The translations under genes were made by a program, and so were the position numbers. Shown here piece by piece: positions 2,551 through 26,736 of a stretch of DNA of 64,000 nt (the stretch's first letter is position 1; the number at the start of each line of letters is the position of its first letter). The notes under the pieces are model-generated. The model saw nothing but the letters and a program-made list of their open reading frames with translations, made no database searches and was not told the DNA's origin. This DNA comes from a virus, in IMG/VR virus record IMGVR_UViG_3300019776_000657, positions 1 through 64,000 of that record. One strand, written 5' to 3'.

Positions 2551-2561
2551 GCCCCTGTGGT
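2551..2561 (+). pseudogene. possible 5' stub of a disrupted tRNA-Leu
   Basis: GC-rich GCCCCTGTGGT resembles a tRNA-Leu 5' end and lies just before the AT-rich HNH insert. Confidence 0.35.
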
Positions 2562-2576
2562 ACATAAAATTTTAGA

Positions 2577-2605
2577 TTGACATTTTATTTCCCATGTTAT
2601 ATAAT
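2577..2605 (+). promoter_or_regulatory. consensus sigma70 promoter of the HNH gene
   Basis: TTGACA-17nt-TATAAT. Confidence 0.8.
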
Positions 2606-2624
2606 ATAATTTTGGGAGACACTA

Positions 2625-3230
2625 ATGACAATAGCAGAATTAATAATAGCAAAAAACAATTTACCGTTTATCTGGAAGAAAAAACACGGTAATTCTCCGG
2701 AAATAACCACTAAGTCTTTTATAAATGTCCTAATACATTCAGATTCTACTGTAGAGGTGTCTGAGCTGTTAGGTATAGGTGAACAAACAGTAAACAGAAG
2801 TATTGTTAAACAACTAAGACCAATATTTGGCAAATTGAACGGCGGAAATGAAACCTGGAAGTATATACTACTAAATTCAATAGAGTATAAACAGTGCCAT
2901 ACTTGTACAGAGATAAAGCCGTACTCAAAATTTGGTAATGATAAATCCACACCTGATGGTAAATACCATAAATGCAGGTACTGTAGATCTTTTGATAATG
3001 CTTCGCTATATCAAGCCAGAAAACTGAGAATACCTAGCTGGCACGCCCAAGAAAAAACTAAGATAGCTGAGTTTTACGATAACTGCCCAGAAGGGTATCA
3101 TGTAGACCACATAATACCGCTACAGGGCGCAAATGTTTCTGGATTACATACCCTGAATAATTTGCAGTATCTACCCGCTAAGGACAATGTCCTAAAAGGG
3201 AACTCATTTGATATTATGGGGGATTGGTGA
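2625..3230 (+). CDS. HNH homing endonuclease
   Basis: CxxC...CxxC zinc finger and HVDHIIPL...GLH...NLQYL...N motif; AT-rich; stop lies inside tRNA-Leu. Confidence 0.88.
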   Translation: MTIAELIIAKNNLPFIWKKKHGNSPEITTKSFINVLIHSDSTVEVSELLGIGEQTVNRSIVKQLRPIFGKLNGGNETWKYILLNSIEYKQCHTCTEIKPYSKFGNDKSTPDGKYHKCRYCRSFDNASLYQARKLRIPSWHAQEKTKIAEFYDNCPEGYHVDHIIPLQGANVSGLHTLNNLQYLPAKDNVLKGNSFDIMGDW

Positions 3231-3300
3231 AATTGGCAAACACACTTCTCTTAAACAGAAGCACTTCGGTTTGTGGGTTCGAGTCCCTCATCCCCCACCA
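3218..3300 (+). tRNA. tRNA-Leu(UAA)
   Basis: GGGGGAT/ATCCCCC + ACCA; CTTCT-CTTAAAC-AGAAG; variable arm. Confidence 0.9.
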
Positions 3301-5264: not shown

Positions 5265-5537
5265 ATGAAACTGAAGACATTTGTATACGAAGATTTGAAG
5301 GGCAAGATTAGTAACCGCACAGTATTGGTGGTTCAAGAACCAACCAGTAAACTGAGTGGTATTGATGTAACAGAAGCTAACGATGAAGTCATTGTTAACT
5401 TTGCCTTGGCATACGAAACCGCACGTCAAGCATTCTTGGCAGAAGTGAGTGCACTGCAAGCTCAGTATGACCTGGTTCACCGGTTCCGTCAGTTCTTTGA
5501 GACTAAAATGGATGCGGTAACAGTAGAAGAACTTTGA
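5265..5537 (+). CDS. hypothetical protein
   Basis: 90-aa ORF after the promoter. Confidence 0.7.
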   Translation: MKLKTFVYEDLKGKISNRTVLVVQEPTSKLSGIDVTEANDEVIVNFALAYETARQAFLAEVSALQAQYDLVHRFRQFFETKMDAVTVEEL

Positions 5538-5601
5538 TGGTTGTAATCCCTTCGGATCGAAGGCGTGTTGGACGAGGGTTCGATTCCCTCCAGGTCCACC
5601 A
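5538..5601 (+). ncRNA. ssrA: two-piece (permuted) tmRNA, acceptor piece
   Basis: GGAC-GAGGG-TTCGATT-CCCTC T arm, then CAGGTCC-A-CCA; upstream part complementary to helix 2 of the coding piece. Confidence 0.9.
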
Positions 5602-5612
5602 AAAAGGATTGT

Positions 5613-5768
5613 ATGACAATATTTGACTTACCCTGGTGGCAACAAGCCGTGGGATATGCAGTCTGGATCAATTATTTTTATTGGTTTTACGTACATCCGA
5701 TTCTTTTTGATGGGCCTGACCAGGTTTCGACAGCGCGAGATAGTGAAGACGGCAACTCGGCAATGTGA
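5613..5768 (+). CDS. 51-aa aromatic/hydrophobic ORF in the tmRNA spacer, reading into the coding piece
   Basis: AAGGA SD at 5604-5608; MTIFDLPWWQQAVGYAVWINYFYWFYVHPILFDG... Confidence 0.45.
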   Translation: MTIFDLPWWQQAVGYAVWINYFYWFYVHPILFDGPDQVSTARDSEDGNSAM

Positions 5769-5910
5769 AAGCCGTAGGGTTGGGATAACCCGGCCGAAGC
5801 AGCAAAAAACTTAAATGCCAATGATGCATTTTACGGAGAACTTAGCTTAGCAGCTTAAGTCTTCGGGCGGTTTGAAAAGGTTATCCGTCTTACCAAAAAC
5901 CTTTTCAAAT
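5712..5910 (+). ncRNA. ssrA: two-piece tmRNA, coding piece; tag (A)ANDAFYGELSLAA at 5817-5858
   Basis: 5' GGGCCTGACCAGGTTTCGAC; pairs with 5591-5597 with a G3:U70 wobble; TTAAAT-GCC resume context; pseudoknot 5865-5909. Confidence 0.9.
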
Positions 5911-5947
5911 AATATCTTAAAAATGACAATGATAAATAAATTTGTAT

Positions 5948-5976
5948 TTGCTATTTTTAAGCTATTATAGTATAAT
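5948..5976 (+). promoter_or_regulatory. sigma70-type promoter of the GIY-YIG gene
   Basis: TTGCTA-17nt-TATAAT preceded by AAATAAATTTGTA. Confidence 0.65.
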
Positions 5977-5999
5977 ACTTCTATGTGCTGGAGGTATTT

Positions 6000-6689
6000 A
6001 TGACAATAGGTATTTATAAGTTAATTTTTTCCGGATTAGAAGATTGGCCTTATGTGGGGCAGTCTTCTAACATTGAACAAAGGTTTCATGGACATTGTTC
6101 AGATCTTAAACATGGCAAATCAAACTTTAAGATGCAAGAAGCATACGCTATGTCAGGATCACCAAGTCTCTACATTGTAGAAGAATGCAGTATTGAACAG
6201 CTTAACTCAAGAGAAATTTTTTGGATAAAAAGACTAAATTCTGTTGATAATGGCCTAAATTTAACTGATAAATGTGTTAATAATGGCATCGGAGAAGAGA
6301 ACTTTAGAAGTAAATATTCCAATTCTATTATAGAGAATGTATTTTTTACTATTGTTAATAATCCTGACAAAAATCTAAAAGAAATAGCAACTATTGTTGG
6401 GTTGGAGCATTCGATACTTGCCAGTATAGCCAACGGATTAAACCATACATGGTTGAAAGAAAAGTACCCTACAGAATATGAAGTAATGTTACGACAAAAT
6501 CGTAGGGGATTAAATACAGCCAAATATCAGGGCATAGAATATCCGGCCATAAAATCTCCTGATGGACATGTATATAACATTACTAATCTGCAAAAATTTT
6601 GTAGAGATCATGATCTACAACCTTCTTGTATACATGGCGTTTTGCATGGTAATAGAAAATCACACAAAAAATGGAAGTTAGCAGCCTGA
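6000..6689 (+). CDS. GIY-YIG homing endonuclease (Seg-like) ending in LAA
   Basis: GIY...YVGQS..I..R...H, later E..WI...N....G.N; C-terminal DNA-binding repeats; AT-rich. Confidence 0.9.
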   Translation: MTIGIYKLIFSGLEDWPYVGQSSNIEQRFHGHCSDLKHGKSNFKMQEAYAMSGSPSLYIVEECSIEQLNSREIFWIKRLNSVDNGLNLTDKCVNNGIGEENFRSKYSNSIIENVFFTIVNNPDKNLKEIATIVGLEHSILASIANGLNHTWLKEKYPTEYEVMLRQNRRGLNTAKYQGIEYPAIKSPDGHVYNITNLQKFCRDHDLQPSCIHGVLHGNRKSHKKWKLAA

Positions 6690-6742
6690 AAAACTAGCTA
6701 AGCCAGGGTTTGGCCACATGTCCTTGTTATCAATCATGTGGC
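6678..6742 (+). other. second copy of the tmRNA tag-end hairpin and pseudoknot
   Basis: TTAGCAGC+stop hairpin (TTAGC/GCTAA), then H-type pseudoknot CAGGG/CCTTG and GCCACATG/CATGTGGC. Confidence 0.65.
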
Positions 6743-6855
6743 ATTTTATAAGCACACTGCCACTTAATAAATAAATGCGGAGCAATCCGGTACGCCTTCC
6801 GCGGGTTAGGGTAACGCAGTGGTGGCCGCCACTGTTCCTGGTGTGCTTATAAAAT
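6743..6855 (+). ncRNA. unassigned structured RNA 1
   Basis: perfect 15-bp closing stem ATTTTATAAGCACAC/GTGTGCTTATAAAAT; internal GGA-GCAA-TCC, GG-TACG-CC and CAGTGG/CCACTG hairpins. Confidence 0.6.
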
Positions 6856-6916
6856 ACTAGCACTTCACTGATAAAGAAGACTGGTCAACTGTACTCAATT
6901 GGCTAGTGCTTGTATT
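6853..6916 (+). ncRNA. unassigned structured RNA 2 with an Ile-GAU anticodon-like loop
   Basis: closing stem AATACTAGCAC/GTGCTTGTATT; CTTC-A-CTGATAA-A-GAAG; CTGGTCAA/TTGGCTAG. Confidence 0.5.
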
Positions 6917-6986
6917 GGCGGGCCTGTACAACCCCGAAAGGAACCCGCCTCCGCGCACGACGAAAACAGGATGGGCTGTCGTGCCA
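6917..6986 (+). ncRNA. unassigned structured RNA 3 (kissing/pseudoknot)
   Basis: GGCGGG/CCCGCC, GCACGAC/GTCGTGC, loop-loop CCTGT/ACAGG; ends ...GCCA just before tRNA-Thr. Confidence 0.55.
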
Positions 6987-6988
6987 CT

Positions 6989-7063
6989 GCCGTTTTAGCT
7001 CAGAGGTAGAGCAATCCCCTTGTAAGGGAAAGGTCGTCAGTTCGATTCCGACAAGCGGCACCA
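6989..7063 (+). tRNA. tRNA-Thr(UGU)
   Basis: GCCGTTT/AAGCGGC + ACCA; TCCC-CTTGTAA-GGGA. Confidence 0.93.
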
Positions 7064-7082
7064 GACTTTCAAAATTTTTATA

Positions 7083-7111
7083 TTGAACCACACGCTCCAA
7101 TGTCTTATAAT
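7083..7111 (+). promoter_or_regulatory. sigma70-type promoter
   Basis: TTGAAC-17nt-TATAAT; ATG 7119 lies 7 nt downstream. Confidence 0.65.
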
Positions 7112-25973: not shown

Positions 25974-26002
25974 TTGTCTCTACAAAGCATCCATGCTATA
26001 AT
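25974..26002 (+). promoter_or_regulatory. sigma70-type promoter of the second GIY-YIG gene
   Basis: TTGTCT-17nt-TATAAT preceded by AAATAAATTTGTA. Confidence 0.65.
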
Positions 26003-26031
26003 TGATGGATAATTTGAGGGGACAGGTATTT

Positions 26032-26736
26032 ATGACATGTGGCATATACTTATTAAAATTTAATGGTACCAATAAGGTATACGTGGGCCAATCTGAAAAT
26101 ATTGAGTATAGGTATAAAAAACATTTGCAAAGGCTAAAAAGAGGCGACCATAATTATAAAATGCAGCAAGCATATAAAGACTATGGATCGCCCATATTAG
26201 AAATAGTACTTGCAGATTTAACCAAAGAAGAGCTAAATTCAAACGAGTATGAAGCTTTTAAAATTTATGACTCAATATCTAATGGATTTAATATAGCTGA
26301 GCAGCCAAGTATTCATGGTAGTGGAGAGCTTAATCCAAGTTCAAAGTATCCAAATGAAAAACTAATAGAAGTATTATTTTTATTATTAAATATTAATAAT
26401 ACCTACAAACAAATAGAATCACTTACAAGTGTAAGTGAAAGTACTATACGGCATATTGCAAATCAAGAAGCCCATCATTGGTTAGAACAAAAATACCCTT
26501 TAGAATACTCACAACTGAGGAATTTAAAGGGTAAAAGATCTACTGGTAAAAATACAGCAATAGATCGAGGTATAGTATATCCTACAATACTTTCCCCGAC
26601 TGGAGAAGAGTATAATATTACTAATATTGCAGCTTTTGCTAAGGAACACGGATTAGATAGCAGTTCATTAGCTAAAGTGTTAAAGAAACGGCCAAAGTAT
26701 AACAGTCATAAAGGCTGGAAACTAAAACAAACTTAA
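26032..26736 (+). CDS. GIY-YIG homing endonuclease (paralog of 6000..6689)
   Basis: GIY...YVGQSENIEYR...H; shared C-terminal pattern YP.I.SP.G..YNITN...F...H.L...SHK.WKL. Confidence 0.9.
   Translation: MTCGIYLLKFNGTNKVYVGQSENIEYRYKKHLQRLKRGDHNYKMQQAYKDYGSPILEIVLADLTKEELNSNEYEAFKIYDSISNGFNIAEQPSIHGSGELNPSSKYPNEKLIEVLFLLLNINNTYKQIESLTSVSESTIRHIANQEAHHWLEQKYPLEYSQLRNLKGKRSTGKNTAIDRGIVYPTILSPTGEEYNITNIAAFAKEHGLDSSSLAKVLKKRPKYNSHKGWKLKQT

Follow-up and report, generated by a model that had tools for sequence, protein, structure and literature searches.

Introduction

In fungal mitochondria, open reading frames (ORFs) known as mORFs provide invaded genes with a foreign 3′ end, as described for atp6 of Allomyces macrogynus and for atp6, atp9, cox2, and nad3 of Glomus sp. 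(PMC3630166). Here, we analyzed a transfer-messenger RNA (tmRNA) gene, ssrA, and an adjoining GIY-YIG endonuclease gene in a stretch of viral DNA, hereafter the window, which comprises the first 64 kb (64,000 nucleotides, nt) of the 79.8-kb IMG/VR virus record IMGVR_UViG_3300019776_000657 (estimated completeness of 76%). We consider it likely that a free-standing cassette with an I-TevI-like GIY-YIG homing endonuclease has given this two-piece phage tmRNA gene a new end and homes into endonuclease-free alleles of the gene, and that the C-terminal Leu-Ala-Ala (LAA) of the endonuclease is a by-product of this arrangement.

The fungal mORFs are the closest published design. As in those elements, the endonuclease ORF would bring along a diverged substitute for the end of the gene it invades, so that no splicing is needed, and the native end lies displaced downstream, still near-identical to that of endonuclease-free relatives. 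However, mORFs occupy mitochondrial protein-coding genes and mostly encode LAGLIDADG enzymes, whereas the present target is a phage RNA gene and the enzyme is of the GIY-YIG type. Here, a tag end and an RNA pseudoknot are what is replaced, and the endonuclease ORF, unfused to the gene, reaches its stop within the displaced fragment. Among phage systems, SegB of T4, like the other free-standing homing endonucleases of the Seg type, is the nearest analog, as a GIY-YIG gene in a cluster of small-RNA genes that is absent from close relatives and co-inherited with flanking markers; SegB recognizes DNA encoding a conserved RNA motif, namely tRNA-coding DNA (PMC2330249). Unlike the locus studied here, segB lies between tRNA genes without interrupting any, and it has neither a replacement end nor a displaced fragment. 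Cleavage and homing have been demonstrated for SegB, whereas they are predicted for the present enzyme.

The tmRNA gene itself is a known target of mobile DNA. Described forms include genes with group I introns in the T loop, some of which contain LAGLIDADG genes (PMC11915505), and genomic islands with an integrase that restore the tmRNA gene they split, as outlined in PMC4383910. Such islands, too, provide the gene with a new 3′ part while a displaced fragment stays behind. In contrast to these introns and islands, the locus in the window has no ribozyme core and no integrase, it occupies the tag end instead of the T loop or the 3′ acceptor end, and its replacement end is strongly diverged, whereas that of an island is a near copy. 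Two-piece tmRNA genes are known from phages, including the Methylophilales phage Melnitz, with 53 such genes counted in phage databases (PMC9004378). Melnitz resembles the present case as an aquatic phage with a permuted tmRNA, but no endonuclease insertion or duplicated tag end has been described for it. The 2025 tmRNA database paper covers standard, intron-containing, and permuted gene forms only and does not mention the present arrangement (PMC11915505), and a literature search for GIY-YIG or other homing endonucleases linked to tmRNA found no description of it. Thus, the novelty is a free-standing endonuclease cassette that gives a tmRNA gene a new end at its tag, while the kind of mobile element is already known.

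Comparison with endonuclease-free relatives

The octamer TTAGCAGC followed by a stop codon is present twice in the region, at the tag end of the tmRNA gene (TTA GCA GCT TAA, 5847–5858) and as the last codons of the endonuclease ORF (TTA GCA GCC TGA, 6678–6689). The octamer by itself is unremarkable, with four copies in the window against 3.5 expected; it gains significance because the comparison with relatives places copy 2 at a joint with sequence of endonuclease-free alleles.

This comparison was based on about 80 related viral loci gathered through neighboring proteins. In six contigs without the endonuclease (L018–L023), the alignment to the window ends at 5824–5826 and resumes at 6679, with about 14 nt between. 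The tags of these six contigs are ANDSVYALAA or ANDNNFALAA, i.e., 10 amino acids (aa) long, and the sequence after their tag stop is 92–100% identical to window positions 6679–6758 (97–100% in L021 and L022). From 6679 onward, the window matches the L021 and L022 tag ends without a difference, and the stranded end at 6690–6749 shows 97–100% identity to the functional 3′ end of these two contigs and 90–92% to that of L018. The resident coding piece upstream (5712–5826) is 86–92% identical to that of endonuclease-free relatives. Since these relatives run directly from the tag into 6679-like sequence, the 831 nt between the two octamers are an insertion, and 6678–6749 represents the tag end that was there originally, with its hairpin strand and pseudoknot. 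This displaced tag end and its pseudoknot are undecayed.

Similarity to the endonuclease-free alleles stops at about 5826, some 20 nt short of the left octamer. The window tag is of a different and longer type (13 aa against 10 aa) starting with its fourth codon, and this type resembles the tag end ANDEHFYQEFKLVA of contig L055. Because the foreign DNA starts at about 5827 and the tag is of the long cassette type, the octamer repeat reflects shared coding for LAA together with microhomology. Between the body of the gene and the endonuclease ORF, there is thus a diverged tag end with its own pseudoknot (5827–5909). The features of the locus are as follows.

5539–5601, plus strand: tmRNA acceptor piece with the helix 2 3′ strand, T arm, CAGGTCC acceptor 3′ strand, discriminator A, and CCA (Rfam, sequence)
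5602–5711, plus strand: intervening spacer of the permuted gene, hypervariable (93-nt insertion in the Rfam alignment; identity bins against contig L181)
5712–5826, plus strand: resident part of the coding piece with the GGGCCTG acceptor 5′ strand (G3:U70), helix 2, pseudoknot 1 region, resume codon GCC at 5817, and first three tag codons (Rfam alignment)
5827–5858, plus strand: cassette-type tag end, ...AFYGELSLAA and TAA, three codons longer, with octamer copy 1 at 5847–5854 (ARAGORN; long tags only in endonuclease-linked alleles; likeness to L055)
5834–5909, plus strand: putative replacement 3′ end of the tmRNA coding piece, with a stop-codon hairpin at 5834–5865 followed by the pseudoknot PK′ (fold z = −3.4; knot score 41 against 9; beta_tmRNA terminal hairpin at 5864–5892)
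5948–5976, plus strand: promoter-like site, TTGCTA, 17 nt, and TATAAT, followed by GGAGG at 5990–5994 (10 of 12 consensus positions matched, a consensus match only)
6000–6689, plus strand: I-TevI-like GIY-YIG homing endonuclease of 229 aa ending in ...KKWKLAA and stop (Pfam, catalytic residues, AlphaFold2, Foldseek)
6678–6689, plus strand: joint, with octamer copy 2 and TGA; the last Ala codon and stop of the ORF are those of the old tag (identity to the L021/L022 tag ends; native family end TTA GCA stop)
6690–6749, plus strand: displaced original tmRNA 3′ end, with a spacer, the 3′ strand GCTAAGC of the old stop-codon hairpin (6697–6703), a pseudoknot at 6704–6742, and a T-rich tail (identity to L021, L022, and L018; pseudoknot search)

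Properties of the tmRNA gene and its two ends

The tmRNA gene is permuted and consists of two pieces (5539–5858 and onward). The Rfam model tmRNA_permuted (RF04321) matched with 118.6 bits over its full length (model positions 1–213; gathering threshold, 47), and beta_tmRNA (RF01850) matched with 98.7 bits (gathering threshold, 84) in an alignment reaching 5892. ARAGORN also called a permuted tmRNA and read the tag as ANDAFYGELSLAA. The gene has permuted tRNA-like halves, helix 2 pairing, a T arm, and CCA, and the acceptor strands GGGCCTG (5712–5718) and CAGGTCC (5591–5597) form the G3:U70 pair of alanine identity. Its tag frame runs from a resume codon to a hydrophobic tail. Between the window and L181, identity is only about 40% in the spacer at 5602–5711 against 88–100% on both flanks, which argues against a conserved protein-coding ORF in the spacer. 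As for the phage, the NAD-dependent ligase of the window has its closest relatives in T5-like phages (about 46% aa identity), and a blastn search of the studied region against cultured phages gave a match at tRNA-Thr only.

Each octamer copy is followed by a pseudoknot. In PK′, GGGCGG (5865–5870) pairs with CCGTCT (5885–5890) as stem 1, and 5871–5882 with 5898–5909 as stem 2. In the second knot, the stems are CAGGG (6704–6708) with CCTTG (6722–6726) and GCCACATG (6713–6720) with CATGTGGC (6735–6742). We searched each of 47 distinct sequences (46 related tmRNA ends and the stranded remnant of the window) for the best knot of a fixed topology within 80 nt past the tag stop, and in 43 of them a knot with this topology occupied the corresponding position behind the tag. 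PK′ outscored all the others (41, compared with 9 in shuffles); relative to the family, its first stem is unusual and its second stem is long and AT-rich.

Stem 2 covaries in the family, with a mean of 7.2 base pairs (bp) between own partners against 5.0 bp between partners swapped among lineages, and at least 6 bp were reached by 86% of the own-partner helices against 29% of the swapped ones. The sequence of stem 1 is conserved, with little covariation between its strands (85.6% of cells paired, not above shuffles). Stem 1 was counted column-wise, whereas stem 2 was evaluated by a script comparing own and swapped partners; a column-wise count of stem 2 on the MAFFT alignment was dropped because the stem register shifts between rows. 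The terminal pseudoknot is a family-wide feature, and both copies in the window (PK′ and 6704–6742) fit it. The tmRNA of one relative, L017, has a shortened 3′ end (2089–2160), in which stem 1 of the knot is present and stem 2 was not found; it directly joins a GC-rich element like that at window position 6917, and the counterpart of window positions 6679–6916 is absent.

An earlier note on this DNA, made from the sequence alone, had proposed that an endonuclease element invaded ssrA at the tag end and supplied a replacement tmRNA 3′ end. Both proposals are supported by our results, the former by the comparison with L018–L023, in which the tag does continue into sequence like window positions 6690–6742. 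The sequence also bears out its reading of an LAA-encoding octamer with a stop at both places, and we found an H-type pseudoknot after each copy exactly as it was written, with the topology shared by the family. Its statement that each copy lies in a hairpin holds for copy 1, which is within a strong hairpin (fold of 5826–5925, z = −3.4), but the fold around copy 2 is no better than shuffles (z = −0.7). Likewise, the two ends that it described as a duplicated tag-end module are real, but the foreign DNA begins at about 5827, upstream of the left octamer. The in-frame fusion of the ORF to the old tag end was right as to the joint, although only the last Ala codon and the stop come from the old tag.

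The endonuclease and related cassettes

The endonuclease looks active, judging from its sequence and model, because its Pfam score passes the cutoff (PF01541, 28.2 bits against 22.6), all catalytic positions are kept, and the predicted fold is I-TevI-like. Nine residues, namely G4, I5, and the catalytic positions Y6, Y18, G20, R28, H32, E72, and N87, are invariant in 26 homologs. The AlphaFold2 (AF2) model has a predicted local distance difference test score (pLDDT) of 89.7, and its N-terminal domain matched the I-TevI catalytic domain 1mk0 in Foldseek (E-value, 5e-6; target template modeling score, 0.85; 34% identity). Beyond a low-confidence linker near residues 91–105, the model has helical domains (108–165) and a small C-terminal domain (180–229). 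Residues 184–227 match phrog_2081, a module shared with HNH homing endonucleases, and Foldseek also found that the C-terminal part resembles the DNA-binding part of I-HmuI. The protein thus has, as in I-TevI, a separate C-terminal DNA-binding module connected by a linker. In a tblastn search against cultured phages, the matches had at most 28% identity over the full length.

The composite locus was found, with both joints the same, in L181, a 15-kb metagenome contig. The window and L181 are mostly 94–100% identical (88–90% in a few bins) across 5700–6399 and 6550–6749, as compared with 54–82% in the upstream gene (5300–5499) and about 85% on average downstream. The high-identity tract takes in the stranded remnant, suggesting that the composite moves as a unit in which the remnant would serve as right-hand homology to endonuclease-free targets. 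The endonuclease shows a presence/absence polymorphism at one site, being absent in L018–L023 and present in L181 and the window.

The endonuclease ORF is the only ORF in the 831-nt insert, and the sole non-coding DNA of this insert is 141 AT-rich bases that include the promoter-like site and GGAGG. Contig L055 has the same order of long tag, pseudoknot, promoter, and endonuclease, with an endonuclease 54% identical in protein; there, 844 nt stand in place of the 43-nt pseudoknot of the endonuclease-free contig L053, and no remnant is left. In L168 and L185, a more distant endonuclease of the same family begins 29 and 20 nt, respectively, past the predicted end of a long-tag tmRNA gene. Overall, the endonuclease family is found at this site in at least three further tmRNA lineages. 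Tag length cleanly splits the loci compared (L017–L099, L168, L181, L185, and the window), as about 40 loci with 10-aa tags have no downstream endonuclease and all endonuclease-linked alleles have tags of 13–14 aa.

The short tags are of the type ANDxxFALAA, and the extra codons of the long tags resemble sequence past the stop in short-tag alleles. Read-through into the strand of the old hairpin may have given rise to the long tags. L168 (995–1015) and L185 (2935–2955) also contain a second tag-end-like octamer, TTAGCGGC, about 55 nt past the tag stop and followed by a conserved hairpin; it sits between the pseudoknot and the endonuclease gene and may be another stranded tag end or a part of the cassette.

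Neighboring elements

At 2551–3300 of the window, a second endonuclease cassette follows the same replacement design in mirror image. An HNH endonuclease ORF (2625–3230) lies within a 735-nt insert (2562–3296) that is also present in L021 and L022 and terminates in a tRNA-Leu(UAA) at 3218–3300. L019 and L181, which have no HNH gene, contain one intact tRNA-Leu(UAA) in the corresponding segment, which differs from that of the insert and of which the window retains only the first 11 nt, the stub GCCCCTGTGGT.

From the stranded pseudoknot to tRNA-Thr (6743–6988), the window is GC-rich, free of ORFs, and conserved in relatives, with mostly 85–97% identity to L018, L021, and L022 and a variable block at 6759–6838; it matched no Rfam family. 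L020 and L023 have an extra segment of about 70 nt at 6749. Additionally, a 50-nt hairpin-forming element at 6860–6909, downstream of the stranded pseudoknot, has copies of 90–92% identity in other phages, namely in L055 (2258–2307), L033, L053, L054, and L063. The L055 copy is inside the intervening spacer of the tmRNA gene, between CCA and the coding piece, while the positions in the other four contigs were deduced from the order of BLAST hits only. The element looks like a portable small RNA module.

Proposed mechanism and alternative explanations

In the mechanism that we favor, a cassette at about 5827–6677 would carry a longer, divergent tag end with its stop, a stop-codon hairpin, a terminal pseudoknot, a promoter, and the endonuclease gene. 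As it brings its own tmRNA end, the tmRNA would be complete without splicing, and the resident tag end and pseudoknot (6678–6749) would be displaced downstream as an unused remnant. During mixed infection, the enzyme would cut endonuclease-free tmRNA alleles near the tag end or pseudoknot, and repair would copy the cassette, with the tmRNA body as the left homology arm and the remnant with downstream DNA as the right arm. The carrier allele would be immune since one side of the target is recoded and the other side is split; in particular, the recoded, lengthened tag end would protect it from its own enzyme. The cleavage of endonuclease-free alleles, the position of the cut, the immunity of the carrier, and the use of PK′ as the working 3′ end are points that we infer from sequence comparison. 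The right joint would have formed at TAGCA, where the endonuclease end (W-K-L-A-stop) meets the tag end (L-A-A-stop), adding one Ala to the protein.

The C-terminus of the endonuclease bears on this last step. The family consensus end is ...RKSHKKWKLA, and among about 70 viral homologs, 13 end in KLA without a tmRNA nearby and none ends in LAA. The earlier note, which took LAA for an acquired degron, is thus not refuted by homologs unlinked to ssrA, and the ends that it gave for the tmRNA-linked copy (WKLAA) and for a paralog placed at 26032 (WKLKQT) are confirmed; this paralog (26002–26736) is 43% identical and ends in ...GWKLKQT. LAA is confined to the window, P0001 (the L181 protein, 96% identical), P0002 (83%, with a K-to-R change immediately before LAA), and P0005 (69%), while P0006 (the sister of P0005), P0003, and P0004 of the same clade end in KLA, VVVK, and IVNN, respectively, and tmRNA-linked sister endonucleases end in KLA, KLV, or WTK. 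The endonuclease's native ...TTA GCA stop shares TAGCA with the ...(C/T)TA GCA GCC stop of the tag, and the joint lies there, which indicates that only one Ala codon and the stop derive from the old tag. By DSSP on the AF2 model, W225–L227 (WKL) form the last β-strand of the conserved DNA-binding module, in the last block with a pLDDT of about 94. With WKL in the terminal strand, two C-terminal residues would be free, although the small domain may fray when off DNA.

According to a competing explanation, the endonuclease captured the last codon of the tag, WKLA became an LAA degron, and the fusion was selected, repeatedly in two branches, because ClpXP keeps the nuclease short-lived and limits its toxicity. 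The Ala-Ala carboxylate at the C-terminus is indeed the main ClpX determinant of the ssrA tag (PMC7652416), the endonuclease does have Ala-Ala after Leu as in an ssrA-type degron (C-motif 1), LAA is retained in P0001, P0002, and P0005, and no homolog away from tmRNA ends in it. However, a degron of this type also has about five or more unstructured residues beyond the folded body, which the AF2 model lacks, and Fei et al. found that ClpXP does not degrade green fluorescent protein (GFP) with the three-residue tail laa, whereas the five-residue yalaa suffices (PMC7652416). WKLA being native, a single Ala is new, and the TAGCA microhomology accounts for the joint without selection, so that the neutral explanation is sufficient. 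Sisters and members of the same clade have other ends, and the LAA codons lie within the right homology arm, where identity to the target could conserve them without selection on the protein. The acquired degron of the earlier note is therefore not upheld, and we regard its selection as unlikely. Because WKLA is native, the joint is at TAGCA, two residues would be free, and GFP-laa is not degraded, the LAA tail is most likely a scar of the right joint and not a selected degron.

The remaining explanations are less probable still. A one-off illegitimate recombination that left an immobile or domesticated endonuclease gene, without homing, would agree with the non-homologous origin of the right joint, and two degenerate DNA patterns (the LAA joint and the long tag) found nothing further in IMG/VR, so that the cassette is absent there apart from this record. 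It is nevertheless improbable in view of the near-identical cassette with both joints between more diverged flanks in L181, the retention of all catalytic residues, the polymorphism at one site among close relatives, and the occurrence of the family at this site in the other tmRNA lineages. If the insertion had instead inactivated the phage tmRNA, with a non-working upstream tag end and PK′ in a decaying gene, the unusual stems of PK′ and the atypically long tag would find an explanation. We hold this to be very improbable because L055, L168, and L185 have the cassette-type end as their only one; the tag frame, resume codon, LAA end, and stop are also intact, PK′ has the family topology with the best score, and the Rfam model accepts the region. 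The faintest prospect is removal of the insert from the RNA as an intron or intervening sequence, with the mature tmRNA using the downstream original pseudoknot. This pseudoknot is undecayed, and loss of one repeat with the insert would restore a perfect hairpin of the old type (GCTTAGC, 5845–5851, with GCTAAGC, 6697–6703). Against this, 5400–7100 contains no group I or group II intron match at E-values up to 5, and group I splicing requires a U ahead of the 5′ splice site and a G as the last base of the intron, a combination that no junction within or adjoining the repeat offers; self-splicing by a group I intron is therefore rejected as far as the sequence shows. Moreover, the insert offers only its 141 AT-rich non-coding bases with the promoter-like site, and L055 has the same cassette order with no downstream remnant.

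Three other origins were rejected. A transposon target-site duplication does not agree with foreign sequence that starts about 20 nt before the left octamer, nor with an insert without a transposase. Deletion between the repeats would have left endonuclease-free alleles with 13-aa tags, but theirs have 10 aa. An integrase-borne island would have a tyrosine integrase and attachment-site repeats that nearly copy the 3′ end of the gene, whereas the 831-nt insert holds the endonuclease ORF only, and the two ends share just 8 nt.

Some observations weigh against the homing cassette with a scar-like LAA tail. The exact composite is known from two genomes only, the window and L181. Within it, identity to L181 drops to about 81% in a 150-nt block of the endonuclease gene (6400–6549), against 90–100% elsewhere in this gene, which makes the cassette itself a recombination mosaic. 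The promoter-like site is a consensus match, and such matches are no commoner in the region than in shuffles. The closest clade also has LAA in two branches that are separate from each other (one with P0005, the other with the window, P0001, and P0002), which could reflect selection for LAA and not only recurrent microhomology.

Implications

These results call for caution in annotation, since a further tag end with its pseudoknot behind a gene of this kind is a scar, and an LAA terminus does not by itself make a protein a substrate of ClpXP. The endonuclease is a candidate for a site-specific enzyme of the GIY-YIG type, with conserved tmRNA-coding DNA as its predicted target. The locus suggests that the replacement-end strategy of fungal mitochondrial mORFs also works on a structured RNA gene in phages. 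Furthermore, the cassette would explain the two length classes of the tag, i.e., 10 aa in endonuclease-free alleles and 13–14 aa in endonuclease-linked alleles. Since tag length tracks linkage to the endonuclease, the immunity of a selfish element, and not proteolysis, may shape the sequence of the tag in these phages.

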